A stretch of DNA of 64,000 bases from Gemmatimonadota bacterium (lineage in GTDB: Bacteria > Gemmatimonadota > Gemmatimonadetes > Gemmatimonadales > GWC2-71-9): NCBI GenBank assembly GCA_003222055.1, contig QHUT01000060.1:9662-73661 (forward strand), given 5' to 3'. Positions 35,505 through 64,000 of the stretch are shown piece by piece. How positions within the stretch are numbered: position 1 is the stretch's first letter; each line of letters starts with the position of its first letter. A program made the position numbers and the translations under genes. A model generated the notes under the pieces. That model was not told where the DNA came from and ran no database searches. It saw nothing but the letters and a program-made list of their open reading frames with translations.

Positions 35505-35545
35505 TTGCTCAACCTCAAATCCGAGCGTTAGTTTCGCGCGTTCCC

Positions 35546-41529: not shown

Positions 41530-41621
41530 TCGGGGGCAATCTAGCGCGCGCCCGCAGGGCCCGTATTGTTAGCGCACCCACAGCCGGTGCGTGCGGCGTC
41601 GGGGGAAGGGGACGGTACGCC

Positions 41622-49247: not shown

Positions 49248-50354
49248 TTAGTCAACCAGCCGCAATGGCATCACCAGCGCCATATAGCTCGCCGGATCGT
49301 CCCATCCCACCGGCTCCACCGTCGCCGCGCGCTCCGGGGCCTTGAAGGTGATCCGCACTTCGTCGGTCGGCATGTACTTGAGGATCTCGAGCAGGTACGT
49401 GGCGTTGAATCCGATCTCGAGCGGCTCGCCCTCGTAGGTGACGGCGAGCTCGTCCTGCGCCTCCCCCAGGTCGGGCGTCTGCACCGAAAACTTGACGGCC
49501 CCGCCGGAGAACGCGAGCCGGATGCGATGCGTCTGGTCGCTGGCGACCACGCTCATGCGGCGCAGCGCCGCCGCCATGCCCGCCTTGTCGACGGTGGCGA
49601 CCTTGTCGTTCTCGCGCGGGATCACCTGCTCGTAGTTCGGATACGGCCCCTCGATGAGGCGCGAGAAAACCAGCGTGCCGCCGGCGCGGAACCCGATGTG
49701 GTTGTCGCTGCGCGCGACCTCGAGCGCCTCGTCGGCTGCGAACAGGCGGCGGATCTGCTCCAGCGCCTTGGGTGGGACGATCAAATCCGCCGTCGACCCG
49801 CCCTTCGCCGGCACGTCCATCTTGGCGAGGCGGTGCCCGTTGGTCGCCACCATCCGCATGTGGTCGGGCCGGAGCTCCCAGAGCACGCCGTTCAAGATCG
49901 GGCGGCTTTCCTCCGTGGACGCGGCGAAGGCGACATGCCCGACCAGCTTGTGCACGACGCCCGCCGCCGCCTTCCACGCCCCGTCGAACTTGACGGCGGG
50001 GAACGATGGAAACTCCTCGCGCGGCAGCCCCAGCAACTTGAACTTGGACCGACCGCATTCGATGCCCACGCGGGACTCGCCGGCCGCGGTGATGCGAACC
50101 GGACCCGAGGGCAGCTCGCGGGCGATGTCCACCAGCTTCTTGGCGGGGAGCGTCACCGCGCCCTCGGCGTCCACCTCCGCGGGCACGGTGGTGCTGACGG
50201 CGATGTCGAGATCGGTGCCCGAAAGACGCAGGCCTTGCTTGGTGACTTCCACCAGGACGTTCGCAAGGACGGGCAGGGTGGTTTTGGCGGGGATCGCCGC
50301 GGCGACCGCGCTGAGCCCTTCCTGCAGCTGCTCTCGAGTGATCGTGAACTTCAT
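49248..50354 (-). CDS. dnaN: DNA polymerase III beta subunit (sliding clamp)
   Basis: 368 aa beginning MKFTITREQLQEGL, with typical DnaN sequence and its usual position downstream of dnaA. Confidence 0.96.
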   Translation of the reverse strand: MKFTITREQLQEGLSAVAAAIPAKTTLPVLANVLVEVTKQGLRLSGTDLDIAVSTTVPAEVDAEGAVTLPAKKLVDIARELPSGPVRITAAGESRVGIECGRSKFKLLGLPREEFPSFPAVKFDGAWKAAAGVVHKLVGHVAFAASTEESRPILNGVLWELRPDHMRMVATNGHRLAKMDVPAKGGSTADLIVPPKALEQIRRLFAADEALEVARSDNHIGFRAGGTLVFSRLIEGPYPNYEQVIPRENDKVATVDKAGMAAALRRMSVVASDQTHRIRLAFSGGAVKFSVQTPDLGEAQDELAVTYEGEPLEIGFNATYLLEILKYMPTDEVRITFKAPERAATVEPVGWDDPASYMALVMPLRLVD

Positions 50355-50605
50355 CCGCTCCGCCGCCTCGCCCAGTGTGGAGATTGTGAACGTAAGAATC
50401 TACTACCTATACCTAATAGAACTACTAGTAGTAGTAGTAGGCTGCGGGGAAATGTTGGCGTTTCGGGCTAACGTCCGCGTGGCGCAGCGTACTGCCCGTC
50501 CACCGCGCTGTGGGGGCCGTGTTGGGAGTGTGGGCAACCCCGCCCCTTTTCCCACGGCCCCGCGGCGCGTCCACACCCGCCCACATGTCCCCGCGCACAT
50601 GTTGG
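50355..50605. other. Candidate chromosomal replication origin (oriC) in the dnaA-dnaN spacer
   Basis: This 251-nt non-coding spacer has a ~55-nt AT-rich island (about 50384..40) in otherwise GC-rich DNA. Several DnaA-box-like 9-mers are present: TGTGGAGAT at 50376, TGTGGGCAA at 50529 (reverse complement TTGCCCACA), GCGTCCACA at 50567 and CCGTCCACC at 50496. Confidence 0.65.
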
Positions 50606-51988
50606 CTACAGTGCGGACAACTCTTGACGCGCCATTTCGACGCGCTCCTTGAACGTCCGGTCCCGCACCATTTGCCGCTCCACCTTGTCCACCGAGTGAA
50701 TCACGGTCGAGTGATCCCGGCCCCCGAACGCCTGGCCGATCTCGACGAGCTGCATGCCCAGCATGTCGCGCGCGAGGTACATCGCCACCTGACGCGGGAT
50801 GGTGAGCGTCTTGGTCCGGGCTTTGGACCGGAGGCCTTCCGGCGTGACGCCCCAGCGGCGCGCCACGACCTCCTGCACGCGATCGATGCTCGGCGTCGCC
50901 TGGCCGCCATAGCCCCCCGCCTCCTCGCCCTGGCGGATCTTGTCCGACAGCGCCTCGCGCGCCAGCTCGATGGTCACCTCGCGATTCTTGAGCGACGCGA
51001 ACAGCAGCAACTTGATGATGCAGCCCTCGAGCTCCCGCACGCTCGAGCGGATGTGCTCGGCGATGAAGCGCAGCACGTCGTCGGGGATGGTGAGCTCGAG
51101 GTGATCCTGCTCCGCCTTCTTGCGCAGGATGGCGATCCGGTGCTCGAGATCGGGGTGCCCGATGTCGGCCACGAGCCCCCACTCGAACCGCGAGATCAGC
51201 CGGTCCTCGAGGCCCGGGATCTCCTTGGGCGGGCGGTCCGACGTGAGCACGATCTGCTTGTGCCCCTCGAACAGCGCGTTGAAGGTGTGGAAGAACTCTT
51301 CCTGCGTCATTTCCTTGCCCTCGAGGAAATGCACGTCGTCGACGAGGAAGAGGTCCACATCGTTGCGGTAGCGCCGCCGGAACTCGGACATCGTGCGCGC
51401 GTGAATCGATTCGATGACCTCGTTGATGAACTGCTCGGCCCCGAAGTAGTGGACCCGCGTGCCGGGGTACTTCGTCAGCACGGCGTGGGCGACGGCCTGC
51501 ATCAGGTGCGTCTTGCCGAGGCCGGTCGCGCCGTAGATGAAGAGCGGGTTATACGTCTTGCCGGGCGCTTCTGCGACCGCGTGCGCGGCGGCGGCGGCCA
51601 GCTCGTTCGACTTGCCGATGACGAAGGTCTGGAACGTGTAGCGCTCGTTGAGGGGCGTCGTGAGGACGCCGGTCTTGTCGAGCGCGACCGCCTCGCGTGG
51701 TGCCACGAAGAAATCCATCTGGGGGCGCTGCTGACGATCCTCCTGCACGCGGAACACCACGGCCGTCGGACGTCCGAACACGCGCTCCGCGGCGCGCGCC
51801 AGCACGCCGGCGTGCTTGGACTCGTTCCACTCCACCGCGAATTGATCCGGGGCCCCGACGATCAGGCGACCGTCGTCCAGCGCGATCGGTTCCGCCGGCT
51901 CGAGCCACGTTCGCACGGTGGCGTCGGGGAGTTCCCGCCGTGCTTCGTCGAGGAGGCGTTTCCAAGCTTCTTTAGTAGACTGCTCCAT
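50606..51988 (-). CDS. dnaA: Chromosomal replication initiator protein DnaA
   Basis: 460 aa with Walker A GATGLGKTHL, a sensor/box VII region and the C-terminal DNA-binding domain (HSTVIHSVDKV). Confidence 0.97.
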   Translation of the reverse strand: MEQSTKEAWKRLLDEARRELPDATVRTWLEPAEPIALDDGRLIVGAPDQFAVEWNESKHAGVLARAAERVFGRPTAVVFRVQEDRQQRPQMDFFVAPREAVALDKTGVLTTPLNERYTFQTFVIGKSNELAAAAAHAVAEAPGKTYNPLFIYGATGLGKTHLMQAVAHAVLTKYPGTRVHYFGAEQFINEVIESIHARTMSEFRRRYRNDVDLFLVDDVHFLEGKEMTQEEFFHTFNALFEGHKQIVLTSDRPPKEIPGLEDRLISRFEWGLVADIGHPDLEHRIAILRKKAEQDHLELTIPDDVLRFIAEHIRSSVRELEGCIIKLLLFASLKNREVTIELAREALSDKIRQGEEAGGYGGQATPSIDRVQEVVARRWGVTPEGLRSKARTKTLTIPRQVAMYLARDMLGMQLVEIGQAFGGRDHSTVIHSVDKVERQMVRDRTFKERVEMARQELSAL

Positions 51989-52045
51989 CCGCGATAGACG
52001 AAAGGTGGGACGTCCAGCAAGGGCGGCCCGAAACTACGGCTGGCT

Positions 52046-52054
52046 TGTGGAAAA
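52046..52054. promoter_or_regulatory. Near-consensus DnaA box in the dnaA/rpmH divergent promoter region
   Basis: TGTGGAAAA matches TGTGGATAA at 8 of 9 positions. It lies 58 nt upstream of the dnaA ATG. Confidence 0.5.
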
Positions 52055-52113
52055 GTCAACCTTGACCGCCGCGCTCGCGACAGTGTACGTTTCCCGCCTC
52101 CCGAGAGGAATGT

Positions 52114-52275
52114 ATGGGTCCGACGTATCGCCCGCGCAATCGGCGGCGCATCAACAAGCATGGATTCCGCGCGCGGATGAAGGATGTGTGGGGCCGCGCG
52201 GTCCTGTCCCGCCGGCGGAAGAAGGGGCGCAAGCGCCTCACGGTCCGCCTGCCCTCCAAGCACCGGAGTCGCTAA
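52114..52275 (+). CDS. rpmH: 50S ribosomal protein L34
   Basis: My own translation (too short for the ORF track) is [62 protein letters not shown] Shine-Dalgarno sequence lies upstream. The rpmH-rnpA order is the classical one. Confidence 0.9.
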
Positions 52276-52298
52276 CGGGAGAGCGGTATCCGCGTCGC

Positions 52299-52613
52299 GT
52301 GCGTCTGGCGCGCGGCTCGGAGCTCACTGCCTGCTGGGAAGAGGGTCGCCGCTTGCGCACCTCGCATCTCGACCTGGCGTGGCGTCCCAATCCGATGGGC
52401 CACCCGCGCTTGGGCATCGTCGTTCCCCGCTTTCAGTTCACCGCGGTGGCCCGCAACCGTCTGCGCCGTCGCGTGAAAGAAATTCTGAGACGCGACGCGC
52501 TCGCGACGCTGCCCGCCGTCGATCTCGTGGTGCGCGCGAAGCGGGCCGCGTACGCGGCCTCCTTTGCCGTGCTGCGCGCCGAGTTGGCGGACCTGGTGCG
52601 CCGGGTCACATGA
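52299..52613 (+). CDS. rnpA: Ribonuclease P protein component
   Basis: A GTG start at 52299 is in the frame of ORF 51918..52613. The protein is basic ([13 protein letters not shown]) and sits between rpmH and yidD. The start codon is uncertain. Confidence 0.8.
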
Positions 52614-52837
52614 GCCTGGGTCGCTGGCCGCGAGGCGCGGTGCTGGCGTTGATTCGCGTCTATCAGCTGACACTGTCGCACCTGGTGTTCACGCAGTGCC
52701 GCTTCGAGCCGTCGTGCTCGCGGTACAGCTACGAAGCGGTGGAGCGCTATGGCGTGGTGCGGGGAGGGTGGCTCGGCCTGCGCCGGATCCTGCGGTGCCA
52801 CCCGCTGCACCCCGGCGGCTACGATCCGGTGCCCTAA
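52610..52837 (+). CDS. yidD: Membrane protein insertion efficiency factor YidD
   Basis: [23 protein letters not shown]...[19 protein letters not shown]...RILRCHP. It has an ATGA overlap with rnpA. Confidence 0.9.
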
Positions 52838-52870
52838 CGACTAGACGCATAGACGCGTAGACGCACAGAG
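52836..52870. repeat. Period-8 repeat AACGAC-TAGACGCA-TAGACGCG-TAGACGCA-CAGAGG in the yidD-yidC spacer
   Basis: Three TAG triplets lie 8 nt apart (52842, 52850, 52858), so there is one in each reading frame. It shares the 14-mer AACGACTAGACGCA with the repeat at about 49118. Confidence 0.8.
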
Positions 52871-52882
52871 GCGAAAGACCCA

Positions 52883-54556
52883 GTGGAACGACGCGTGATT
52901 TTGGCGATTTTCCTCATGCTCATCGTGGCCGTGCTGCCGAGCATCCTGTTTCCGCCGAAGAAGACGGTCGGGCGGACGGGCGGACAGGCGGTCGGCGACA
53001 CCGGTGTGGGCAAACCGGCGTCTGCGCCCGCCGCGGAGTCCCTCACCGCCCGTCCGCCCGTCTCTCCGTCCGTCGCCGCTGCCGCGGAAACGGTGTGGGT
53101 CACGTCTCCCACGTATCGGCTGGGCTTCAGCACGCGGGGGGCGGCGCTGGTGAGCGCGGAGCTCCTGGAGTATCGCTCGTTCGCCGGCGCGGACGCGGGG
53201 CGTCCCGTGCAGCTCGTGCCCGTCGGTCGCCCGTGGCTGCGCTACGCCTTGACCGCCGGCGGCGACACCGCGGCGCTCGCCGACTGGACCTTCACGCCGG
53301 GCGCCACGCGCGTACGTGTCGGCGAGGGCCGTGACAGCGCGCTGCTGGGCTTCACGGCCGAGCGGGGTGGGGCCAGGATCGCGCTGGAGTACCGCTTTTA
53401 CGCCGCGGAGTATCGTTTCGTGGTGCAGGGCCGCCTTGCGGGCTTCGGCTCGGGCGGCGCGACCCTGCTGGTGGGGATGGGGGACGGGCTCCGTTCGGTC
53501 GAGGCGGACTCGATGGACGACTTCCGGCACTACGCGGTCGTCACCAAGGCCACGAAGACGCAGAGCACGGACTTCCAATCGCTCAAGCCGGGCGATCGCA
53601 AAATCCTGGACGGGCCGTTCGAGTGGGCCGGCGTCAAGTCCAAGTACTTTTTCCTCGCGGGGCTCGCCTTCGAGGAGAACCAGCCGCGCTTCGGCGCCGC
53701 CATCGTGGAGGGCGGGCCGCGCACCGCGACGGCCTCGTCGCTGTTCGGTCGCTCGGCCGTGGCGACCCGGGCGCCGGTCACGCTCACCCTGCCCGTCCCT
53801 CCGGCAGGGGATTTCCGCTACCAGCTCTACGTCGGCCCGCTCGAGTATCGCCGCCTGGCGCAGCTCGGTCACGACCTGGACGACGCCAATCCGTACGGTG
53901 GGTTCCTGCGACCGATCATCCAACCGGTATCGGCGCTGGTGGTGAACATCCTGATCTGGATGCACGACCGGCTCAAGCTTGCGTACGGCTGGGTGCTCAT
54001 CATCTTCGGCGTCTTGGTGCGTGGGCTGCTGTGGCCCTTGAACCAGAAGGCGATGGAATCGAGCATCCGGATGCAGGCGGTCGCGCCGCTCCTGAAGCAG
54101 GTCCAGGATCGCTACAAGAACGAGCCCGAGCGGCTGCAGCGCGAGATGATGAAGCTGTACAAGGAGCACAACGTCAACCCCTTCGGCGGCTGCCTGCCGA
54201 TGCTCCTGCCGATGCCGGTGCTGTTCGCGCTGTTCTTCGTGTTCGCGAACACGATCGAGTTCCGTGGCGTCCCGTTCCTGTGGCTGCCCGACCTGGCGCG
54301 CTCCGACCCGTTCTACATCATCCCGATCGTCATGGGGCTCTCGATGTTCGTGTTGTCCAAGGTCGGCCAGATCGGCGTACCGCCGAATCCCCAGGCGAAG
54401 ACCATGCTGTACTTCATGCCGGCGTTCATGACACTGCTGTTCCTCCGATTTGCCTCGGGGTTGAACCTCTACTACGCCGTGAGCAACATCTTCAGCATCC
54501 CGCAGCAGTACATGATCGCGCGGCGCCGCCTGCGGGAGCAGGGGAAGAGGACGTAG
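52883..54556 (+). CDS. yidC: Membrane protein insertase YidC
   Basis: 557 aa with an N-terminal TM helix, a large periplasmic domain and a conserved C-terminal 5-TM core (GCLPMLLPMPVLFALF, YYAVSNIFSIPQQ). Confidence 0.93.
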   Translation: MERRVILAIFLMLIVAVLPSILFPPKKTVGRTGGQAVGDTGVGKPASAPAAESLTARPPVSPSVAAAAETVWVTSPTYRLGFSTRGAALVSAELLEYRSFAGADAGRPVQLVPVGRPWLRYALTAGGDTAALADWTFTPGATRVRVGEGRDSALLGFTAERGGARIALEYRFYAAEYRFVVQGRLAGFGSGGATLLVGMGDGLRSVEADSMDDFRHYAVVTKATKTQSTDFQSLKPGDRKILDGPFEWAGVKSKYFFLAGLAFEENQPRFGAAIVEGGPRTATASSLFGRSAVATRAPVTLTLPVPPAGDFRYQLYVGPLEYRRLAQLGHDLDDANPYGGFLRPIIQPVSALVVNILIWMHDRLKLAYGWVLIIFGVLVRGLLWPLNQKAMESSIRMQAVAPLLKQVQDRYKNEPERLQREMMKLYKEHNVNPFGGCLPMLLPMPVLFALFFVFANTIEFRGVPFLWLPDLARSDPFYIIPIVMGLSMFVLSKVGQIGVPPNPQAKTMLYFMPAFMTLLFLRFASGLNLYYAVSNIFSIPQQYMIARRRLREQGKRT

Positions 54557-54582
54557 GGAGAGGGACGAGGGAAGGGGGAAGG

Positions 54583-55941
54583 GTGCTGTCGGACCCCATC
54601 GTCGCGCTCGCCACGCCGCCCGGTCGCTCGGCCATCGCGCTGATCCGGCTCTCGGGCAGGGGCGCGTTCGACGTCGCGGCGCGCGTACTCCATCCCTTCC
54701 GGCCGGCTCCACCCCGTGCCGTCCGCCGAGTGCGCGTGATGCACCCCGCGACGGGAGAGCCCGTGGACGACGCGCTCGTCGCCTGCTTCCCCGCGCCGCG
54801 CTCCTACACCGGAGACGATCTGGTCGAGCTGTCGACGCACGGCGGCCTGCTCGTTCCGGCGGCCGCCGTCGCGGCGCTGCTGGCCGCCGGGGCCCGGCCC
54901 GCGGCGCCGGGGGAGTTCAGCCGTCGCGCCGTGCTGAACGGCAAGCTCGACCTGCTGCAGGCGGAGGCGACGGCCGACATGATCGACGCCGGCTCGCCCG
55001 CACAGGCGCGCCGCGCGCTGCAGCAGCTCGACCGCGGGTTGTCCCAGCGGCTCGAGCAGTTGCGGGCCGAGCTGATCGAGCTCGAGGCCCTGATCGCGTA
55101 CGAGATCGATTTTCCCGAGGAGGACGAGGGTCCGGTGGCGCCCGAGCGGGTCGAGCGCGCCTGGGGCGCGGCACGCGAGCGGATCGCGCAGCTCATCGCC
55201 ACGGCCCCGGAGGGGGAGCGGCTGCGCGAAGGGGCGCTGCTGGTCATCGCCGGGCGTCCCAACGCCGGCAAATCGTCTCTGTTCAACGCCCTGCTCGGCC
55301 GGGAGCGCGCCATCGTGACCGAGGTCCCGGGCACGACCCGGGACGCGATCGAGGCGTACGCGGTGCTCGAAGGCTTTCCGTTCCGGCTCGTCGACACGGC
55401 CGGGTTGCGGGAGAGCGACGACCGGGTCGAGCGGCTGGGGATCGACGTCGCGCGACGCTATCTCGACGCAGCGGACCTGATCCTCTTCTGCGAGGACGCG
55501 GGGGACGAGGGACGGGGGACGGGGGACGGGACTGATCGCGCTGCGTTCCTGGCCGCGTGTCGCGCGCCGGTGGTGGCCGTGCGGACCAAGGCGGACCTGT
55601 TACCCGTCCCCCGTCCCTCGTCCCCCGTCCCCGTGGTTTCGGTCGTGACTGGCGAGGGCCTCGCCGAGCTGCGTCGCAAGCTCGCCGAGGTCGCCTACGG
55701 CCGGCTGCTCGCGCTGGGCGACGTGGAGCCGGTCGTCACGCGGGCGCGCCACCGCGAGGCACTGGAGCGCGCCTTCGCCGAGGTCAACGCGTTCCGGGAG
55801 GCGCGGGAGAGTGGGGTGGATGCCGCGGCCGCGGCCACCCATCTGCGCGCCGCCCTGGGGGCGCTCGACGACCTGATCGGCGTTGTGACGCCGGACGCCG
55901 TCCTCGATCGCGTGTTCGCCACGTTCTGCGTCGGGAAGTGA
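54583..55941 (+). CDS. mnmE: tRNA modification GTPase MnmE
   Basis: GTG start at 54583. G1 is GRPNAGKSSLFNAL, G2 is PGTTRD, G3 is DTAGLR and G4 is the variant TKAD. The C-terminal CVGK motif is present. Confidence 0.93.
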   Translation: MLSDPIVALATPPGRSAIALIRLSGRGAFDVAARVLHPFRPAPPRAVRRVRVMHPATGEPVDDALVACFPAPRSYTGDDLVELSTHGGLLVPAAAVAALLAAGARPAAPGEFSRRAVLNGKLDLLQAEATADMIDAGSPAQARRALQQLDRGLSQRLEQLRAELIELEALIAYEIDFPEEDEGPVAPERVERAWGAARERIAQLIATAPEGERLREGALLVIAGRPNAGKSSLFNALLGRERAIVTEVPGTTRDAIEAYAVLEGFPFRLVDTAGLRESDDRVERLGIDVARRYLDAADLILFCEDAGDEGRGTGDGTDRAAFLAACRAPVVAVRTKADLLPVPRPSSPVPVVSVVTGEGLAELRRKLAEVAYGRLLALGDVEPVVTRARHREALERAFAEVNAFREARESGVDAAAAATHLRAALGALDDLIGVVTPDAVLDRVFATFCVGK

Positions 55942-56028
55942 CGCATCCCTTCGCTCGATGTAGATTGCGTGCCGCCCGCTGGTTGCGGGCGCCACCACAC
56001 CGATCGGGCGCGCGCGAGGGTACGGCCC

Positions 56029-56571
56029 ATGGATGACCACGCAGGAGCGGGTCCCGCGATGCGCTCGCCCGAGCGCTGGCTCGCCGTGCTGCGCATCGGA
56101 GTCGGCGTGTGGTTCGCCAAGGCGATCTTCACCAAGCTCAGTATCACGCTGGCCTGGGGCTTCCTGCCCGTCCCTACGGCTTCGGACCGATGGGTCCACC
56201 TGATGCCGACGCTCGTCGGCAAGTACGCCGAGGGCAACCCGGTGGGGTTCTTTCGGGAGTTCCTCCAGCACACCGTGGTGATTCATGGTCCGCTGTTCGC
56301 CCAGCTCACGGCGTTCGGGGAGGCCGTCGTGGGTCTGGGCCTGGTGCTCGGTTGCCTCACGACCCTCGCGGCGGGGGTCGGTCTGTTCCTAGTGCTGAAC
56401 TACGGTCTTGCGGTGCAGTGGCAGGGTTCGGCGCAGCAGGGGTTCCATTACATGTTGATCAGCACCCTCGTGGTGATTCTCGCGACCCGGGCGGGGCGGG
56501 TGTGGGGCGTGGACGGGTGGGTGCGTGCCCACCGGCCGGGGTCGTGGCTCGCGCGCCTGCCCTTCGGTTAG
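56029..56571 (+). CDS. DoxX family membrane protein
   Basis: Start is at the internal ATG (MDDHAGAGPAMRSPERWLAVLRIGVGVWFAKA...). It has 4 TM helices in the DoxX pattern. Confidence 0.7.
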   Translation: MDDHAGAGPAMRSPERWLAVLRIGVGVWFAKAIFTKLSITLAWGFLPVPTASDRWVHLMPTLVGKYAEGNPVGFFREFLQHTVVIHGPLFAQLTAFGEAVVGLGLVLGCLTTLAAGVGLFLVLNYGLAVQWQGSAQQGFHYMLISTLVVILATRAGRVWGVDGWVRAHRPGSWLARLPFG

Positions 56572-57542
56572 GGGAGGTACAGCAGGTCGTTCGGCCGCTC
56601 CCCCACGGGGATGGCGGTGAGGACCTTCCGCGTCGCCGTATCGATCACCGACACGGTGTTGGAGCGGCCGTCCGCGGTGTAGAGGCGGTTCCCGTCCGCT
56701 GCGAGCGCGATCCCCCACGGCCGGCGCCCGACGGCGATCGAGTCGACCACCCGGTGCGTGGCCATGTCCACCACGCTCACGGTCCCGGCCGCGCCTTCCG
56801 TAAGGTAGGCCCAGCGCTCGTCGGCGGTGAACGCGATGCGCACCGGCTTGGTCTTGCCGTCGCGGATCGGGAACTGCTCAAGCACGCTGTCGCTCGCGAC
56901 GTCGATGATCGTCACGTTGCCGCCCGCCTCCGCGGACACCCACGCGCGTCGCCCGCCCGGCGTGAACGCGATGGTGCGGGGGTTCTCGCCCACGTGAATC
57001 GTGCGCAACAGCCGGCCCGTCTTGGCGTCGAGCACCGACACACTGTTACTGGTCTCCGCGGTCACGTACACCTTCTTGCCGTCGGGCGTCACCGCGATTC
57101 CCTCGGGCTCGACACCGACGGCGGTCGAGAACACGATCTTGCCGGTCGCCACGTCGATCGCGCTGGCGTGGGCGACCTCCTCGTTGGACACGTAGGCGGT
57201 CTTGCCGTCGGGGCTCACGACCACCAGCTCGGGGTCGCGGCCCGCGGGGAGGGTGCGGGTCATCTTGCCGCTCGCGACGTCGATCACGCCGAGTGCGTCG
57301 TCCTGCCCGAGGGCGACGTAGACGGTGCGCCGGTCGGGGCTCGCGGCCAGACCGCGGGGCCGCCTCCCCACGACGATCGTCGCGACCACGCTGTTCGTTT
57401 GGGGCGAGATGACCGCGACGGTGTTGTCGACCTCGTTGCTGACATACAGCGAGGGGCCGGCGGTGCGCGCCGGGAGGGACAGGACGATTGCAACAAGGAA
57501 GGGCAGGGCCGGGATGCGCCTCGGGGATCTCGCGGGACTCAT
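56568..57542 (-). CDS. YVTN-family beta-propeller protein (PQQ-dependent catabolism-associated type)
   Basis: These are the last 324 aa of ORF 56568..58094. A signal peptide is followed by about 7 repeats of the pattern P.G(I/L)A.(S/T)PDG...YV(S/T)N....V(S/T)VID. Confidence 0.85.
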   Translation of the reverse strand: MSPARSPRRIPALPFLVAIVLSLPARTAGPSLYVSNEVDNTVAVISPQTNSVVATIVVGRRPRGLAASPDRRTVYVALGQDDALGVIDVASGKMTRTLPAGRDPELVVVSPDGKTAYVSNEEVAHASAIDVATGKIVFSTAVGVEPEGIAVTPDGKKVYVTAETSNSVSVLDAKTGRLLRTIHVGENPRTIAFTPGGRRAWVSAEAGGNVTIIDVASDSVLEQFPIRDGKTKPVRIAFTADERWAYLTEGAAGTVSVVDMATHRVVDSIAVGRRPWGIALAADGNRLYTADGRSNTVSVIDTATRKVLTAIPVGERPNDLLYLP

Positions 57543-57556
57543 GGGGTCCGTCCGAT

Positions 57557-58312
57557 TCAGTCGTTGAAAATGGCCTGGTCGACGTGCAGCGCCTGGTCGA
57601 GCCCGTGCAGGCGGTCGCGCCCCCGGATGCCTCTCAGGATCGCCCCGGTGAAGTCCGCGCCCGTGACGTCCGCGTCCGTGAGCTCGACGCCGGTGAGGTC
57701 GGCCCACGCGAACAGCACCTTCCGCAGGTTCGCGCCGGTGAGGTCGGCTTCCGTGAAATCGGCCGACGTGGCATCCGTCCGCAACACGCCCATCGACTGC
57801 GTCCCCGGGTCCACGCCGAGGCTCGTATGGACGAGCTTGGCGCGGACGAACTTGGCGCGCGCCATGGGCGAGACGATCTTGGCACGCGACAGATCGGCCC
57901 CGGAGAGGTTGGCGTCGGGCATGATGACGGCGAACAGGCTCGCGTCGCGCAGCACGGCGCGGCGCAGATCGGCGCGATACATCACGACCATGTCGAGCGT
58001 CGCGCCCGTGAAGTCCGCGTCCGTCGCCACCGCGTCGGTCAACGTCGTGGCGAAGAGTTGCGCCTTGGTGAAGTTCGTCCCCACGAGGCGGCATCGTGTG
58101 AGGTTGGCGCGCTTGAAGTCGACGCCCGTGAGATCGAGCCCCGAGAGATCCTGGCCGGTGAAGTCGGCGGGCGTCTGCGCGCTGGCGCCGGCGAGGGCGG
58201 CGAGCACCTGCTCGCGCGTGAGACGCTGCTGCGCGGAGAGGGGCGCCGCGATGACGCTCGTGGCCAGCAGCGCGACGGCGACACGCCCGATGACGCCCGC
58301 GCCGGCGGTCAC
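57557..58312 (-). CDS. Secreted pentapeptide-repeat protein
   Basis: The GTG at 58312 forms a GTGA overlap with the cytochrome gene stop. The signal peptide ends AAPLSAQQ. Long runs of A(D/N)LxX pentapeptides follow (ADFTGQDLSGLDLTGVDFKRANLTRCRLVGTNF...). Confidence 0.8.
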   Translation of the reverse strand: MTAGAGVIGRVAVALLATSVIAAPLSAQQRLTREQVLAALAGASAQTPADFTGQDLSGLDLTGVDFKRANLTRCRLVGTNFTKAQLFATTLTDAVATDADFTGATLDMVVMYRADLRRAVLRDASLFAVIMPDANLSGADLSRAKIVSPMARAKFVRAKLVHTSLGVDPGTQSMGVLRTDATSADFTEADLTGANLRKVLFAWADLTGVELTDADVTGADFTGAILRGIRGRDRLHGLDQALHVDQAIFND

Positions 58313-58782
58313 TGACGCTTGGTTTGCAGGTCCGAGGCCCGGTGCGGACGGCCCGGTTTGAGCCAGCCGTCGCTCCGCGCCTTCACGTACAGGTACAGCT
58401 CGGCAATCGCCGACGTGTCGAGCAGCACGTTCCAGGCGGGCATGCCCTTGGCCAGACGCCCGTTCAAGGCCGTGTTGACGAAGCTGTCGCGCGGGAAGTT
58501 GGCGCCGCTGGGACTCAGGGCCCAGCGCAGGTCGGGCGCGGCCGGATTGATCCCACCGATGGCGTCCTCGCCGTGGCAGCGATAACAATACACGTGCCAC
58601 CACTTCCACCCCTGGTAGACCGATTCGGATACGAGCAGGCTGTCACGCAGCGTGTCCCTGTCCCCGATCGCCGCCGCCGCGGCGACGCTGCCCGGCAAGA
58701 CGTGCGGGGCCCACAGGACCGACCCGGCGATGGCGAGCCACAACCCGACGACACCACCCCGCACGACATGCTTGTGTCTCAC
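58309..58782 (-). CDS. xoxG: c-type cytochrome, methanol-metabolism-related (XoxG-like)
   Basis: The GTG at 58782 is preceded by GGGAGAG. An N-terminal TM/signal segment precedes a single heme motif CYRCH in the context YQGWKWWHVYCYRCHGEDAIGG. It sits directly after xoxJ. Confidence 0.7.
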   Translation of the reverse strand: MRHKHVVRGGVVGLWLAIAGSVLWAPHVLPGSVAAAAAIGDRDTLRDSLLVSESVYQGWKWWHVYCYRCHGEDAIGGINPAAPDLRWALSPSGANFPRDSFVNTALNGRLAKGMPAWNVLLDTSAIAELYLYVKARSDGWLKPGRPHRASDLQTKRQ

Positions 58783-58832
58783 GCCTGGTCTCTCCCGGTC
58801 AGCGGTGGACGTGCCGTTCGGCTCGAGCGCCG

Positions 58833-59660
58833 CTACGGGTGCATCTCGATCATCGGCACGTTGAATTCCTGCAACACGCCGACGATCTCGGCGTGGCGGC
58901 GGTCGATCACGGAGTCGAGTGTAGCCTTGAGCTCCTTGTCGCGGTGCCGCACGCCCATGGCCATGCTCCACGCGAACGGCATGCCCGACACGGGGTCGGA
59001 GTCCGGCAGCGCCACCATGGTGAGCGGGACGGCCGCTCGCTTGACCCAGTACCCGACCTTCGGCCCCCACGCGATCGCGACGTCGATCGAGTCCTTCACG
59101 ACGGCGTCGACGATGTCCTGCGGGTGGTCCGCCTTCGGATCGGGGTTGAGGAAGTTGCCGAAGCCGACCAACCCGACGATGCCCCGGGGGCCGAGCGCGT
59201 GGGCCGGCGGGGTGTTGGTGTAATCGTAGCCGATCAGGTTGACGCCGATTTTGAGGTGCTTCAGGACCGTGTCGTCGAGCGACTTGATCGCCAGGCCCCG
59301 ATCGGCGCGGTACACGAAATAGTAGGTCGAGCGGTAGTAGGGCTTGGTCGTGGCCACCGGGTCGAACCCCACCGGTGCCTCGATCATGACGTCACAGAAC
59401 CCCGCGAGGATGGTGCTGCGCAGAAACCCCCGCCGCTGGGGCCACCAGAAGTTGACGACGCCGGCGTTGAGATCGCGCGCGACCACGTGCGCGATCTTGT
59501 TCTCGAACCCCTCTTCCTTGTCGTTCGAGAAGGGCATGTCGTACGGGTCGACGCACACCCGCAGCTCGGTAGGCGCGCGTCGTGCCGCGCCCGCCATGAG
59601 GACGACCGCAGCGGCGGCGCCGAGCCACGCCGCGGCACGCGTGAGCCGAGTGCGATGCAT
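58833..59660 (-). CDS. xoxJ: MoxJ/XoxJ-like periplasmic binding protein associated with quinoprotein dehydrogenases
   Basis: 275 aa with a signal peptide and LRVCVDPYDMPFSN, as in MxaJ/XoxJ (family 3 SBP fold). Confidence 0.85.
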   Translation of the reverse strand: MHRTRLTRAAAWLGAAAAVVLMAGAARRAPTELRVCVDPYDMPFSNDKEEGFENKIAHVVARDLNAGVVNFWWPQRRGFLRSTILAGFCDVMIEAPVGFDPVATTKPYYRSTYYFVYRADRGLAIKSLDDTVLKHLKIGVNLIGYDYTNTPPAHALGPRGIVGLVGFGNFLNPDPKADHPQDIVDAVVKDSIDVAIAWGPKVGYWVKRAAVPLTMVALPDSDPVSGMPFAWSMAMGVRHRDKELKATLDSVIDRRHAEIVGVLQEFNVPMIEMHP

Positions 59661-59707
59661 AGTGCTCCCTGCAGATGCGAAGAGGTGATCCGGTGCAACA
59701 CGTACTA

Positions 59708-59745
59708 CACCCGGCGCCGAAGCGCGTTCGCCGCGGCGCCGGGTG
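59708..59745 (-). promoter_or_regulatory. Strong GC hairpin in the xoxF-xoxJ intercistronic spacer
   Basis: CACCCGGCGCCG-N14-CGGCGCCGGGTG forms a 12-bp perfect stem. No U-tract follows. Confidence 0.45.
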
Positions 59746-59783
59746 CACCTGCCTCCTGCGAGTGATCCTACGCCGTCACGACC

Positions 59784-61562
59784 TCACGGCAGGGCGAACA
59801 CCATCAGGGTGCCGCCCGCGTTGCTGATGTTCGTGTAGTCGCCGAAAGCGCCAATCGCGCCGAGCGCGGCGGTCGGATCCTCCGGGCTGATCCCCAGAGC
59901 GACGCCCGCTCCCGCCCAGCCGCCCACGCCGGAGAGCACGGCGACGTACTGCTTGCCGTCGGGCCCCAGGTACGTCATCGGGTTCCCGATGATGCCGGAG
60001 GGCGTCTTGAACTTCCACAGCTCGGTGCCGGTCGTGGCATCGACTGCCTTGAGCCAGCCTTCCATCGTGCCGTAGAACACGATACCGCCGGCCGTCGCCA
60101 GCGCGCCGCCGTAGGCCGCGAGGTTCTCCTTGATTTCCCACTTCTTGGCCCCCGTGGTCGGGTCCCACGCGACGAACGCGCCCCGGATCTGATCGGGCCC
60201 GGGGTACATCCGCACGATGGCGCCCACGTACCACTGGCCGGCGGAGTACTTCACATCCACGCCCTCATAGTCCATGCAGATGTTGTTCGTGGGGACGTAG
60301 AAGAGCTTCGTCGTCGGTGAATACGCGGAGGGTTGCTGATCCTTGAAGCCGATCGCGGCGGGACAGATGCCCTCGGTGTTCTTCTTCGAGGTGGTCCCGT
60401 ACTGCGGATTGCGGACCGGGACACCCGTCGTGAGATCGATCTTCGACGCCCAGTTCGGTGCGGCGTGCGCGTACGGCTGCGCCACGAGGACCTTGCCGTT
60501 CGTCCGGTCGAGCACGTACCCGAAACCGTTACGGTCGAAGTGCGCCAGCGCCTTGACCGGCTTCCCGCCGATCGTGGCGTCGAACAGCACCATTTCGTTG
60601 ACGCCGTCGTAGTCCCACTCGTCATGCGGCGTCATCTGGTACGCCCACTTCGCCTCCCCGTTGTCGGGGTTGCGGGCGAAGATCGTCATGGACCACTTGT
60701 TGTCGCCCGGGCGCTGATCGGGATTCCACGACCCCGGGTTGCCCGAGCCGTAGTAGAACAGGTTCAGCTGCGGGTCGTAGGAGTACCAGCCCCACGTCGT
60801 GCCGCCGCCGCGCTGCCACTCGTCCCCTTGCCACGTCGACACGCCCAGGTCCTTGCCGCGGTGCGACGGGTAGTTGGGGTTCGCGTCACCGACGATCTTC
60901 ACGTCGGCGTCGGGGCCCGTCGAATAGGCCCGCCACACTTCCTTGCCGGTGTTGACGTCGTACGCCGTCACCCGCCCCCGCACGCCGAACTCGCCGCCCG
61001 AGATGCCCGCGATCACGATGTCCTTGATCACGATGGGGGCGTTCGTCATGGTCGAGCCGGTCTTGTAGTCGGCGTTCGGCACCCGCCACACCTGCTTCCC
61101 GCTCTTCGCGTCGAGCGCGAGCAGGTCGCCCTGCAGCAACTCGATGAACAGCCGGTTGGTGCCCGCATGGTAGGCGAGGCCGCGGTTCACGAGGTCGCAG
61201 CAGGCGATCGCCTTGGCCTCGGGCGGCTGGGCGGGCTGGTGCCGCCAGATCATGGGCGCGCCCGGCTTCGTCAGATCGAGCGCGAACACGACGTTCGGAA
61301 ACGCGCTGTGCACGTACATCACGGTGCCAATCACCAGCGGGTTGCCCTCATGGCCGCTGAGCACACCCGTGGAGAACGACCACGCGGCCTTGAGGTTCTT
61401 CACGTTCGCCCGACTGATTTGGGTGAGCGGGCTGTAACGCTGCAGGTCGTACGTCCGACCCGCCATCGTCCACTCGCCCGCACCCTGGGCGACGGCAGAC
61501 GCCGTGGCGAGCACCATCAGACTCGCCGCGAATCCGCCGGAACACAGTTTGATGCGGTTCAT
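59784..61562 (-). CDS. xoxF: PQQ-dependent methanol dehydrogenase, XoxF (lanthanide) type
   Basis: The ATG at 61562 is preceded by TGAGG. A signal peptide is present. The vicinal disulfide is AIACCD. The WDYDGVN motif carries the extra Asp that distinguishes XoxF/lanthanide enzymes from MxaF (WDYAG). Eight-bladed PQQ propeller sequence runs throughout. No mxaI-like small subunit gene is nearby. Confidence 0.92.
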   Translation of the reverse strand: MNRIKLCSGGFAASLMVLATASAVAQGAGEWTMAGRTYDLQRYSPLTQISRANVKNLKAAWSFSTGVLSGHEGNPLVIGTVMYVHSAFPNVVFALDLTKPGAPMIWRHQPAQPPEAKAIACCDLVNRGLAYHAGTNRLFIELLQGDLLALDAKSGKQVWRVPNADYKTGSTMTNAPIVIKDIVIAGISGGEFGVRGRVTAYDVNTGKEVWRAYSTGPDADVKIVGDANPNYPSHRGKDLGVSTWQGDEWQRGGGTTWGWYSYDPQLNLFYYGSGNPGSWNPDQRPGDNKWSMTIFARNPDNGEAKWAYQMTPHDEWDYDGVNEMVLFDATIGGKPVKALAHFDRNGFGYVLDRTNGKVLVAQPYAHAAPNWASKIDLTTGVPVRNPQYGTTSKKNTEGICPAAIGFKDQQPSAYSPTTKLFYVPTNNICMDYEGVDVKYSAGQWYVGAIVRMYPGPDQIRGAFVAWDPTTGAKKWEIKENLAAYGGALATAGGIVFYGTMEGWLKAVDATTGTELWKFKTPSGIIGNPMTYLGPDGKQYVAVLSGVGGWAGAGVALGISPEDPTAALGAIGAFGDYTNISNAGGTLMVFALP

Positions 61563-61721
61563 AGCTGACCTCATGTTGAGGATGAGGATGAGGAAGAAAC
61601 CATCTACGCCACAGATGCCCGTCGGTCGCCCAACGCTCCGCACGGAGCGGGGGGCCACGTTCCCAACGAGCCACAGCCATCGTCCAACTCCTCCGCACTG
61701 AGCTTGCTGTCAGGGATAGTG

Positions 61722-61750
61722 GTTATATCCCGCGGTCCAGCGACTGTCAA
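61722..61750 (-). promoter_or_regulatory. Near-consensus sigma70-type promoter upstream of xoxF
   Basis: On the minus strand, TTGACA-17 nt-TATAAC begins 23 nt after the mptG stop. It predicts a leader of about 150 nt. Confidence 0.5.
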
Positions 61751-61772
61751 TCAGCCCGGCAAGACCCGCCTT

Positions 61773-62747
61773 TCAGCCTGAAACGGACGGCTCGCCCCGC
61801 CACACGCGGGCGCCGCCCGGACTGAATCCCCCTTCATACACGGCCCCACCCGGCCCGAGCGCGCCCTGTACGCGCCCCGCCAGCGCCCGCGACGCGGCCG
61901 CATCACCCACGATCCCGTACACGGCTGGCCCCCACGAGCTCTGCCCCACCCCCACTGCCCCCCACGCCCGCAGCCGCTCCACCAGCTCCCGCGTCTCGCC
62001 GGGCGCGAACACGCCCCCCTGGGCCGGCGCGAACCAGCCGCCCGTGATACGCTGCACCTCCCCGAGGGCGGTCCCGAACCCCATCAGGTCCGCTTCGGCG
62101 AGCGCCGGGAGGAGTTGCATCAGCACGAGATGGGCGACGCGCTCCACCTCGTGCGCGTCCGGGGGAGGTAGTCGCGCGAACGCCGCCGCCTCCTGGTCGC
62201 CGGCGAGCCCGGGCTTGCCCCGAGGCACCGCCACGACACAGCGCCAGGGCGCCGGGAACGGCAGCCGCGCGAGCAGCGGGGCGACGCGGTCGGCGTGATC
62301 CACCCGCCCGCCCTCGAGCACGAACCCGCCGTGGGCGAACGTCCAGGTGCCCACGCCCGAGCGCAAGCCGCGATCGACCGCCCGGGCCAGCGCGGTGACC
62401 TCCGTCGGCAGGCCGGCCAGCTCGGCGGCGGCGCGCGCCACCGCGAGCGCGAGCTGCGTGCCCGAGCCGAGGCCCGCGTGCGACGGGATGGCGCGATGGA
62501 CACGAAAGCTGACCGGCAGCTCGACGCCGTGGTGCTCCGCGAACCGGCGGGCGAACGCGAGCACCCGCGCCGCGTCGGGCCCCTGCGCCGCGAGGCCCGA
62601 GGCCGGGCGGGCTTCGAGGAGGAGCGACGGCGCCGGGACCGCGGCCCCGATGCCGCCGAAGCGGCGACCGAGGTCGCCCCGCAGGTCGAGCACGCCGAAA
62701 TGGAGCCGCGCGGGCGCCTCGACGAGCAGGGCCGGCTCGCCCGTCAT
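61773..62747 (-). CDS. mptG: Beta-ribofuranosylaminobenzene 5'-phosphate synthase (GHMP kinase fold; tetrahydromethanopterin biosynthesis)
   Basis: These are the last 324 aa of ORF 61773..63242, starting MTGEPALLVEAPARLHFGVLDL. The GHMP motif is IPSHAGLGSGTQLALA. It has an ATGA overlap with the upstream gene. Confidence 0.78.
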   Translation of the reverse strand: MTGEPALLVEAPARLHFGVLDLRGDLGRRFGGIGAAVPAPSLLLEARPASGLAAQGPDAARVLAFARRFAEHHGVELPVSFRVHRAIPSHAGLGSGTQLALAVARAAAELAGLPTEVTALARAVDRGLRSGVGTWTFAHGGFVLEGGRVDHADRVAPLLARLPFPAPWRCVVAVPRGKPGLAGDQEAAAFARLPPPDAHEVERVAHLVLMQLLPALAEADLMGFGTALGEVQRITGGWFAPAQGGVFAPGETRELVERLRAWGAVGVGQSSWGPAVYGIVGDAAASRALAGRVQGALGPGGAVYEGGFSPGGARVWRGEPSVSG

Positions 62748-63313
62748 CGCGCCGCGGACTGCTCGGGGCGGGTCCGGCGCACGTAGTCGGTGAGCAGCGC
62801 CATCGCGTCCCGCTCCCGCGGGCCGGCGGTCTTGTCGACGATCACCTGCAGCCGCGCGAATTCGTCGCGGATCTGCTCGGGCGGGAGGAGATGGGTGCGG
62901 GTGGCGAGAATCGCGGCTTCGAGCACGGCGTGCCGGGCACGGTTGAAGCCCAGGAATTCGCGCTGGAACCCGCGGTGCACCACCCGGGTCACGACCCGCG
63001 CGCGCGGTGGCGTCGCGTCCACCGCCTCCACTCGGACTTCGCGCCAGGAGCAGGCCGCCTCGAGCACGACCCCGCGCACCACGGCGGCAGCCCGGGCGGG
63101 GAGCTGGACATCGGAGATCGCGCCCCGCGCGAACAGCATGACATCGTCCGTGAGGTTCACAACCGCGGCGCGCGTCGCCTCGAGGTTCTTGAACGTGGTG
63201 GTTTCGAGGAACGGCTTGATGACGATCTCGTCCTCCTCCCACTCGACGCCCATCGGGGCGAAGTTCGCCGCCCCGCGCTCGTTCACGGTGGTAAGAATGG
63301 ATTCGATGATCAC
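62744..63313 (-). CDS. DUF447 family protein (FMN-binding split-barrel-like; found in methanopterin gene islands)
   Basis: The GTG at 63313 forms a GTGA overlap with the pabA stop. The sequence is VIIESILTTVNERGAANFAPMGV... Confidence 0.7.
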   Translation of the reverse strand: MIIESILTTVNERGAANFAPMGVEWEEDEIVIKPFLETTTFKNLEATRAAVVNLTDDVMLFARGAISDVQLPARAAAVVRGVVLEAACSWREVRVEAVDATPPRARVVTRVVHRGFQREFLGFNRARHAVLEAAILATRTHLLPPEQIRDEFARLQVIVDKTAGPRERDAMALLTDYVRRTRPEQSAAR

Positions 63314-63948
63314 CGCACCAGCGCCATCGGGGCCGCCGAGCGCGCGCCGTCGGCGCGGTCGGGGAGCGCGTCGCGGCAGGAGGTGGCCCCGTGCAGGAAA
63401 CGATCCAGCAGCACGTAGCCGTGCTCCGTGAGCACGGACTCGGGGTGGAATTGCACGCCGATTACCGGGTGGCGCACGTGCTCGACGGCCATGACCTCCC
63501 CGTCGTCCGCGGTCGCGGTGATGCGGAGCGCGGCGGGCAGGCCGGTCCGCGCGATCACGAGGGAGTGGTAGCGCGCCGCCGCGAACGGATTGGGAAGACC
63601 CGCGAACAGGCCACGCCCGTCGTGGTGGATCCGGGCCGCCTTGCCGTGGACGGGTCGTCCGGCGCGCACGATGCCGGCGCCGTAGGCCGCGCCGATGCAC
63701 TGGTGGCCGAGGCACACGCCCAAGATCGGGATCGTGGGCCCGAACCGCCGCACGACGTCCGTCGAAATCCCCGCCTCGCCTGGAGAACAGGGCCCCGGGG
63801 AGAGGATGATATGCGAAGGCCCGAGTCGCTCGATCTCCTCGTGCGACGTGGCGTCGTGGCGCCGTACAACGGTCTCTTCTCCCAGCTCGCGCACGTAACG
63901 GGCCAGGTTGAACACGAAGGAATCGTAATTGTCGATCAACAGGATCAT
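63310..63948 (-). CDS. pabA: Glutamine amidotransferase component II of aminodeoxychorismate/anthranilate synthase
   Basis: MILLIDNYDSFVFNLARYV, the catalytic Cys in GVCLGHQ, and FHPES are all present. Confidence 0.88.
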   Translation of the reverse strand: MILLIDNYDSFVFNLARYVRELGEETVVRRHDATSHEEIERLGPSHIILSPGPCSPGEAGISTDVVRRFGPTIPILGVCLGHQCIGAAYGAGIVRAGRPVHGKAARIHHDGRGLFAGLPNPFAAARYHSLVIARTGLPAALRITATADDGEVMAVEHVRHPVIGVQFHPESVLTEHGYVLLDRFLHGATSCRDALPDRADGARSAAPMALVR

Positions 63949-64000
63949 GGGCTCACACGTTCAAAACGTCACGCGATCCTTCTTGGCTTCAATGACCGCA

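Follow-up and report, generated by a model that had tools for sequence, protein, structure and literature searches.

What does a five-gene cluster around a pyrroloquinoline quinone (PQQ) dehydrogenase do in a Gemmatimonadota genome (contig QHUT01000060.1, assembly GCA_003222055.1), and does it hold anything beyond what has been described for this lineage? The 64-kb stretch that we analysed, referred to here as the window, carries on its minus strand five co-directional genes (56568–61562) for the dehydrogenase XoxF, a XoxJ-like binding protein, a c-type cytochrome, a pentapeptide-repeat protein and a YVTN beta-propeller. A prediction made from the sequence alone had called them an operon for a XoxF-type, lanthanide-dependent methanol dehydrogenase in a lineage where such modules are little studied. 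The first part of this interpretation is correct but already published; the second does not hold, as the sections of Butterfield et al. 2016 (PMC5103831) on this dehydrogenase describe an ortholog with proteomic evidence. It is very probable that the cluster serves a soil Gemmatimonadota bacterium as a module for methanol oxidation in the periplasm. The operon itself is of a published kind, and its one new element is an upstream open reading frame (uORF) of a few codons in the xoxF leader.

Two samples were used for comparison. The genome sample comprised 81 loci, namely the window and 80 related loci, and the metagenome sample comprised 88 distinct leaders, obtained by an exact-match scan of metagenome contigs using the xoxF ribosome-binding region. 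The non-proteobacterial context that had been suspected was borne out, as the close XoxF homologs (73–95% identity) are Gemmatimonadales sequences of soil metagenomes and the 80 related loci all come from Gemmatimonadota metagenome-assembled genomes (MAGs). The nearest species genome by XoxF was the Gemmatimonadetes MAG AG20 (QHUU01000054; our locus L002), with 98% identity.

The dehydrogenase and its clade

The xoxF gene (59784–61562, minus strand) encodes a protein of 592 aa with an N-terminal signal peptide, and its start is supported by a GAGG sequence 6 nt upstream and by an independent gene call. In profile searches with curated cut-offs, the protein belonged to the methanol/ethanol PQQ family (TIGR03075, 694.9 bits against a cut-off of 480; PF01011, 221 bits against 26.7). 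The original prediction had taken the additional Asp of the motif WDYDGVN as the lanthanide ligand, at a position where MxaF has Ala, and alignment with MxaF and XoxF references placed it in exactly that column. Specifically, 'HDEWDYDGVNE' aligns column by column with D299-Y-D301 of the SolV XoxF, with D319 at SolV D301 and at the Asp of XoxF1 ('WDYDG' in the window, 'WDFDG' in M. extorquens XoxF1, 'WDYAG' in MxaF chains). The metal ligands E191, N275, D317 and D319 correspond to SolV E172, N256, D299 and D301, and R344 corresponds to SolV R326. G190 agrees with the XoxF references, whereas MxaF has Ala there. The vicinal disulfide, proposed earlier from an ACC motif, was likewise confirmed: C121-C122 ('IACCDL') aligns with the vicinal Cys pair.

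When the protein was searched against PDB sequences with phmmer, it scored 727 bits with SolV XoxF, 709 with M. extorquens XoxF1 and 640–650 with MxaF chains. The scores were 576 bits with 7O6Z (a Methylacidimicrobium XoxF1-type enzyme), 366 with PedH and 334 with ExaA. Because the scores to XoxF and MxaF are about twice those to PedH or ExaA, the window XoxF falls into the methanol dehydrogenase branch; we found neither an Asp aligned elsewhere nor a clustering with ethanol dehydrogenases, the two outcomes that would have spoken against the earlier assignment.

The placement among XoxF clades was evaluated on a neighbour-joining tree (a distance method; 500 bootstraps) with references from the supplementary alignment of Butterfield et al. 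and from PDB alignments, in which XoxF2 and XoxF4 are represented by one or two references each. The Gemmatimonadota XoxF sequences formed one clade (100% bootstrap) that was excluded from XoxF3 (100%), XoxF1 (100%), XoxF5 (90%) and the group of XoxF5, XoxF4 and MxaF (98%), and that was sister to this last group in 85% of replicates. Identities were 57% to the XoxF5 and XoxF2 representatives, 52–53% to XoxF3, and ~51% to XoxF4 and MxaF. On this tree, the window XoxF belongs to a clade of its own outside the named clades XoxF1–5, in agreement with the 'a new clade' of the 2016 description. The XoxF3 label found in the 2024 literature on Gemmatimonadetes is ruled out by the tree for the window XoxF and may concern paralogs.

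Cofactor genes and published relatives

Directly upstream of xoxF, on the same strand, lie genes for PabA (63310–63948), a DUF447 protein (62744–63313) and beta-RFAP synthase (61773–62747), a tetrahydromethanopterin (H4MPT) cofactor unit whose genes are joined by GTGA and ATGA overlaps. This block (61773–63948) is a separate upstream unit that ends 25 nt before the −35 element of the xoxF promoter described below. Its position reinforces a role of the xoxF cluster in C1 metabolism. The order pabA, DUF447, RFAP synthase, xoxF, xoxJ, cytochrome, pentapeptide and YVTN gene, with a convergent DoxX gene at the end, is kept in most of the 80 related loci (for the upstream part, in loci with upstream flank), and this synteny holds over loci with XoxF identities of 69–98%. 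In AG20, the block extends upstream with PabB, a DUF6513/pterin-binding protein and pterin-4a-carbinolamine dehydratase. Between pabB and pabA of this MAG, inside the cofactor block and in a part that lies past the end of the window (3370–7602 of L002), we also observed genes for a fusion of DUF1080 (3-keto-disaccharide hydrolase) with a PQQ_2-type propeller, for a second PQQ_2-type propeller and for a cytochrome c/helix-hairpin-helix protein.

The published relatives are very close. According to the parts of Butterfield et al. 2016 that concern this enzyme (PMC5103831), a Gemmatimonadetes PQQ methanol dehydrogenase ranked first in abundance in the proteome of a grassland soil, and its lanthanide Asp residues were noted. 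The same authors place genes for H4MPT biosynthesis right upstream of it and report PQQ synthesis, the serine cycle and the H4MPT pathway for these genomes. Their work was extended by Diamond et al. 2019 and Voutsinos et al. 2024 (PMC10875860). The cluster on scaffold 13_1_20cm_4_scaffold_43_59 of the 2016 study is orthologous to ours, with an XoxF 87% identical and with the upstream trpG/pabA, hypothetical (DUF447) and beta-RFAP synthase genes and the downstream genes alike. AG20, from Diamond et al. 2019, has the same upstream and downstream genes. We found no material gene difference from either cluster; the leader uORF, the promoter and the hairpin after xoxF go unmentioned in the sections of both reports that deal with these genes.

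The better-known systems are more distant. The solved enzymes SolV XoxF (4MAE, XoxF2) and M. extorquens XoxF1 (6OC5, XoxF5) belong to the same fold family and share the lanthanide ligands, catalytic Asp, vicinal disulfide and Arg with the window XoxF, which differs from them by its separate clade, by Tyr484 in place of Trp and by a neighbouring cytochrome that is no close XoxG homolog. In SolV, XoxG and XoxJ are fused, and the M. extorquens cluster is limited to xoxFGJ. The XoxF3 systems of Acidobacteria, Gemmatimonadetes and Verrucomicrobia (Voutsinos et al. 2024, PMC10875860) are also xoxF clusters of soil phyla, with XoxG, XoxJ and a YncE-type 'PQQ-dependent catabolism-associated' propeller. 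They differ from the window in clade, as given above, and in that no cox/ctaG or NRAMP genes were seen, by eye, beside xoxF in the window.

Accessory genes and electron transfer

That xoxF is followed on the same strand by genes for XoxJ, a single-haem c-type cytochrome, a pentapeptide-repeat protein and a YVTN propeller had been predicted, and the profile searches agree with this, as do the gene calls on a 5.2-kb JGI soil contig that encodes an identical XoxF and on which all five genes were called independently. The XoxJ-like periplasmic binding protein (58833–59660, minus strand; 275 aa) scored 256.1 bits with TIGR03871 (cut-off 212.15) and had XoxJ 6ONP as its best PDB match (E 1.9e-42); with the MoxJ equivalog TIGR03870 it stayed below the cut-off (138 against 258). 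The mono-haem class I cytochrome (58309–58782, minus strand; 157 aa; PF13442, 30.6 bits) carries a single CxxCH motif, CYRCH, and a candidate Met ligand. Its PDB matches were weak and included CcoP, cytochrome c552 and XoxG 6ONQ, the last (E 3.5e-4) no better than the other two. It may act like XoxG, though by profile it lies outside that family, and is presumed to be the electron acceptor of XoxF.

The remaining two products find their counterparts in the ped cluster of Pseudomonas putida (PMC12997753), where the same protein types surround PedE/PedH: the cytochrome PedF, the MoxJ-like binding protein PedG, the pentapeptide protein PedD and the propeller PedA2 (PP_2669). The window's pentapeptide-repeat protein (57557–58312, minus strand; 251 aa; PF00805, 110 bits) has an N-terminal hydrophobic export signal by inspection and is conserved next to the PQQ dehydrogenase in most loci. 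It thus combines the repeats, the export signal and the adjacent PQQ alcohol dehydrogenase of a PedD-like protein, a positional counterpart likened by type and place rather than by homology. The YVTN beta-propeller (56568–57542, minus strand; 324 aa; TIGR02276 repeats, 208.7 bits) is of the 'PQQ-dependent catabolism-associated' type, a family name shared with PedA2. Unlike the ped cluster, the window has a dehydrogenase of the methanol rather than the ethanol branch, and PedA1, PedB and PedC ABC genes do not stand beside the propeller. Specifically, no PedB/PedC-like ABC transporter genes were seen next to the YVTN gene in the window or in two more distant relatives inspected closely, where the extra DNA encodes unrelated proteins. 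When the pentapeptide protein was compared by tblastn with plasmids, in search of annotated contexts with a PQQ alcohol dehydrogenase, the matches in Methylocella and Methylorubrum did not adjoin dehydrogenases. A gene for a DoxX/DoxD-family membrane protein (55969–56571, plus strand) is convergent with the YVTN gene, the two ends overlapping by 4 nt, and this adjacency is kept in most related loci.

Taken together, these features suggest the following path. XoxF, exported by its Sec signal peptide, would bind PQQ and a light lanthanide through E191, N275, D317 and D319 and would oxidise methanol to formaldehyde or formate. The neighbouring mono-haem cytochrome c would take up the electrons from XoxF and deliver them to a terminal oxidase. 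The XoxJ-like protein may help XoxF to mature or become active, a function proposed for XoxJ and MxaJ, and the pentapeptide-repeat protein and the propeller, as counterparts of PedD and PedA2, could serve as periplasmic accessory factors. Formaldehyde would be handled by the H4MPT pathway, of which cofactor genes lie directly upstream.

Methanol or another alcohol

Several of our observations weigh against this path and call for caution. The metal and the substrate are deduced from ligands and context. XoxF has Tyr at position 484, where SolV XoxF (W467) and the MxaF, XoxF3 and XoxF5 references have Trp; in MxaF, the equivalent Trp contacts PQQ. Tyr484 was also present in two further clade members that we inspected. 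The cytochrome scored 25.5 bits with the XoxG-related TIGR03874 (cut-off 161.75), and the propeller fell ~4 bits short of TIGR03866 (282.9 bits against 287.3, over profile positions 9–303 of 310). In addition, none of pqq, fae, mtd, mch, fhc and lanthanide-uptake genes was recognised, by eye, in the 64-kb window.

Tyr484 and the position outside XoxF1–5 could also be expected of an ExaF/PedH-type enzyme, a general alcohol dehydrogenase that depends on lanthanides and uses ethanol or other alcohols, and the accessory set (pentapeptide protein, YVTN propeller and MoxJ_2-type binding protein) is that of Pseudomonas ped rather than the classical xoxFGJ. We nonetheless regard such an enzyme as improbable in view of the twofold difference in bit score, the branching with XoxF5, XoxF4 and MxaF (85% bootstrap), the tight linkage to H4MPT cofactor genes, and the H4MPT and serine pathways reported for genomes of this clade in the pertinent parts of PMC5103831. 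A calcium-dependent enzyme of the MxaF type, which the ~51% identity and ~650 bits to MxaF might suggest, can practically be dismissed, as Asp319 and Gly190 stand where MxaF has Ala and the ligand alignment already contradicts it, MxaF forms a separate clade (100%), and the cluster lacks small-subunit and mxaACKL genes.

This last absence had been part of the original prediction, and we agree with it to the extent that no mxaI or mxaACKL was recognised by eye in the GC3-filtered translations of the window's open reading frames, on which no profile scan was run. A methanol dehydrogenase with lanthanide as its metal remains the reading to which ligands and context point. As such, the operon adds little to current knowledge: Gemmatimonadota XoxF clusters are documented, their products are among the most abundant proteins of grassland soil, and the window is one more example of lanthanide-dependent methanol turnover in soil. 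Nevertheless, an abundant and biochemically uncharacterised enzyme clade outside XoxF1–5 is a sensible target for work on metal and substrate.

Transcription of xoxF and the downstream genes

Upstream of xoxF we identified a putative sigma-70-type promoter (61722–61750, minus strand) with the −35 element TTGACA (61750–61745), a 17-nt spacer and the −10 element TATAAC (61727–61722). Both hexamers occur at the same position in 19 related loci (from a regular-expression listing), and the spacer varies freely; a consensus promoter scan had missed TATAAC, as it accepts only −10 elements with T at position 6. Transcription of xoxF would start from this dedicated TTGACA-N17-TATAAC promoter. A palindrome, GGGATA-N7-TATCCC (61713–61731, minus strand), overlaps the −10 element and the likely transcription start, its half-sites are conserved in related leaders, and it could be an operator.

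A very stable stem-loop of 40 nt (59707–59746, minus strand) lies between xoxF and xoxJ. The intergenic region folded at −72.6 kcal/mol (z = −2.94), with none of 200 shuffles as stable, and an equivalent hairpin of 16–19 bp with compensatory changes follows xoxF in all 45 of the loci printed. No U-tract follows the hairpin in the window; a U-run is present in the group of ~74% identity. This hairpin may be a 3′ stabiliser of the mRNA or a partial terminator that raises xoxF over the downstream genes; it would favour an abundant xoxF message and lower read-through to the four accessory genes. With a promoter and leader of its own and this hairpin behind it, xoxF is probably expressed well above the four downstream genes.

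A single transcription unit had been proposed on the grounds that the last genes overlap or nearly touch. The spacing itself is as predicted: the start of the pentapeptide gene lies on the cytochrome stop in a GTGA overlap (58312–58309), and 14 nt separate the TGA of the pentapeptide gene (57559–57557) from the ATG of the YVTN gene (57542). The conserved, tight gene order supports one unit, while the conserved promoter and leader of xoxF and the stable hairpin after it speak for some independence of the first gene. In the extreme case, xoxF would be monocistronic and end at 59707–59746, and xoxJ, cytochrome, pentapeptide and YVTN genes would be transcribed separately. The extreme stability and conservation of the hairpin, the U-run in the ~74%-identity group and a gap of 123 nt ahead of xoxJ all fit this arrangement, which we consider possible but unlikely given the missing U-tract in the window, a terminator scan that found none on the minus strand, the lack of a promoter-like site between hairpin and xoxJ, and the conserved gene order and spacing.

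A conserved mini-ORF in the xoxF leader

The xoxF leader of ~150 nt contains a GGAGG Shine-Dalgarno (SD) sequence (61694–61690), a 9-nt spacer and then ATG GCT GTG GCT CGT TGG GAA CGT GGC CCC CCG, a candidate mini-ORF for the peptide MAVARWERGPP located 85 nt upstream of xoxF (61648–61694 with the SD, minus strand; ATG at 61680–61678, ERGPP codons at 61662–61648). Across relatives, this uORF has 9–11 codons. Of the 81 genome loci, 62 have the motif [ED]R[GSA]PP ahead of xoxF, and ER(G/A)PP is kept in 81 of the 88 metagenome leaders, some of which start with ATT, TTG or GTG. Three leader families with differing N-terminal codons could be distinguished (MxxAC[WR]ERGPP, MLPTVERGPP and MV[GC][ST]ERSPP), along with a few RAPP variants, and the SD and ATG are properly spaced in the group of at least 78% identity. 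Outside leaders, the background of the motif was 0.036 per kb in 1.41 Mb; the strict SD-start-motif pattern had 33 occurrences in leaders against a single one in this 1.41 Mb.

Codon usage across the 62 loci suggests that the peptide, and not only the nucleotides, has been conserved. Glu is encoded by GAA (26) and GAG (36), Arg by CGT (16), CGC (37), CGG (4) and CGA (5), and the next residue by GGC (11), GGT (4), GGA (5) or GGG (29) for Gly and by AGT (5) or AGC (7) for Ser. The first Pro is CCC (24), CCG (6), CCA (8) or CCT (24), and the second is CCG (38), CCC (8), CCA (12) or CCT (4). All synonymous third bases are therefore in use at R, G, P and P, with a third-position diversity of 0.51–0.66 against ~0.7 in the flanks, and the 30 nt after the second Pro are unconstrained (diversity ~0.7). 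Positions 1 and 2 of the E-R-G/S-P-P codons are fixed, a result that is circular given that a regular expression chose the motif; the third-position result alone is non-circular.

These nearly free third positions argue against the alternative that the uORF is untranslated, its bases being conserved as an RNA structure or protein-binding site and ERGPP being a coincidence in GC-rich DNA. RGPP codons are indeed GC-rich, R[GA]PP occurs 55 times in the six-frame translation of the window, and codons 4–6 of the uORF do join a conserved helix. Taken whole, the leader folds no more stably than its shuffles (z = 0.49), and the motif is broken in ~8% of metagenome leaders, both of which also leave room for this alternative. 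We still hold it to be quite unlikely, considering that three leader families with unrelated N-terminal codons share the motif, that the SD and ATG stand at a proper distance, and that the strict pattern is so rare elsewhere.

With regard to distribution, no similar uORF was present at ten proteobacterial plasmid xoxF/mxaF loci, and on this limited sampling the uORF looks specific to the Gemmatimonadota clade. Three loci binned as 'Deltaproteobacteria' (L048, L053, L059) carry a Gemmatimonadota-clade XoxF (76–77% identity) and have neither the upstream cofactor genes nor the uORF; these bins could reflect mis-binning, another phylum or horizontal transfer. An ERSPP mini-ORF in locus L070 was rejected as a chance occurrence, antisense within other ORFs. 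An Rfam search of 55500–64000 (E-value mode) matched no family.

The stop codon of the uORF lies 0 to 27 codons past the second Pro or is missing, and in AG20 the uORF frame runs into xoxF. In this MAG (9842–11779 of L002), no stop separates the two, and the true xoxF start is the Met of MNRIKL, which has its own SD. Gene callers could therefore give over-extended XoxF N-termini, and database entries of 626–696 aa may be such cases. Leader ORFs of only 9–11 codons are themselves expected to escape ordinary gene callers.

Possible action of the leader peptide

In MAVARWERGPP, R-(A/G)-P-P forms the functional end of a small ORF that precedes a gene of the same orientation, as in the RAPP/RGPP arrest peptides ApdA, ApdP, SecM, the S. 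lividans RGPP peptides, CruR and CutF, of which CruR and CutF are precedents for copper-sensing arrest. The passages of PMC12992588 on these motifs describe RGPP as the most robust RAPP-like arrest sequence, resistant to EF-P and strongly avoided in proteomes, and as overrepresented towards the C-termini of small ORFs that precede various genes, metal-related ones included; as little as RxPP can be enough to cause arrest (PMC10951233). The window's uORF differs from these peptides by its length of 9–11 codons, by a strongly conserved Glu before the Arg, and by the lack of a signal peptide or membrane segment, so that release by export is impossible. The N-terminal localisation signal typical of monitoring substrates has no counterpart among the six residues before ERGPP.

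The leader could also be remodelled by translation. In an RNAalifold consensus, uORF codons 4–6, GCTCGTTGG (61671–61663), pair with CCGACGGGC (61625–61617) in a helix that we call P1 (61617–61671, minus strand), whose partner strand is a conserved CYGACRGGC element 45 nt downstream. P1 was 92% paired in 19 sequences, compared with ~40% when slid, with 3 pairs changed on both sides, and in 28 distinct combinations of arms it kept on average 8.3 of 9 pairs. We have moderate confidence in P1 as a predicted helix. Since codons 4–6 form one of its arms, translation of the uORF and P1 would be mutually exclusive. A second hairpin, CCTCAT-N7-ATGAGG (61569–61587, minus strand), includes the xoxF SD GAGG (61572–61569) and is predicted to sequester it, with an unpaired probability of the SD of ~0.06. 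It is near-invariant in 19 leaders (96% paired) and shows no covariation among them.

To our minds the chances are about even that xoxF of Gemmatimonadales is controlled by this 9–11-codon leader peptide, with E-R-(G/S)-P-P, its only conserved part, halting the ribosome at the mRNA's 5′ end and thereby either stabilising an exceptionally abundant message together with the 3′ hairpin or gating xoxF through remodelling of P1 on a cytoplasmic cue. The 11-codon ORF of the window would in either case park a ribosome near the 5′ end. Some of our results need to be set against this proposal. Characterised arrest peptides are much longer than this one, which carries no export signal, and in 7 of 88 metagenome leaders (~8%) single substitutions break the motif. 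A simple unmasking of the xoxF SD by a stalled ribosome found no support in silico: in 18 leaders folded by partition function with the ribosome footprint unpaired, the SD stayed paired (unpaired probability 0.07 free, 0.06 stalled). An attenuator in the leader was also considered and rejected, as no consistent hairpin lies beside the T-rich run after the stall site and a terminator scan found none. Between the two modes of action, we weakly favour a parked ribosome as a 5′ mRNA stabiliser over signal-dependent gating. The leader of ermC is a precedent for such stabilisation.

The 15 papers ranked highest in a search with terms linking xoxF to arrest peptides or uORFs did not mention xoxF, and as far as we searched, the conserved RGPP leader ORF is unreported. 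Among the arrest-peptide targets listed in the corresponding sections of PMC12992588, the class of periplasmic dehydrogenases is not named. If the proposal is true, a methanol dehydrogenase would for the first time be seen under arrest-peptide control, by a natural RGPP arrest peptide that is unusually minimal and lacks an export signal, and RAPP/RGPP peptides would be extended to a new target class. In any case, the mini-ORF offers a testable hypothesis for how uncultured bacteria reach or regulate very high XoxF levels.

Surroundings of the cluster

The rest of the window holds housekeeping genes. Because dnaN, dnaA, rpmH/rnpA, yidD, yidC and mnmE (49248–55941) adjoin the xox cluster, the cluster is origin-proximal, and AG20 has the same neighbourhood. 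Such a site fits a high gene dosage for a very abundant protein. Further away, a GWxTD-motif protein and three Ser/Thr protein kinases (34149–35666, 35249–36463, 41499–42470 and 46886–48325) are unrelated to the operon and consistent with a Gemmatimonadota genome.

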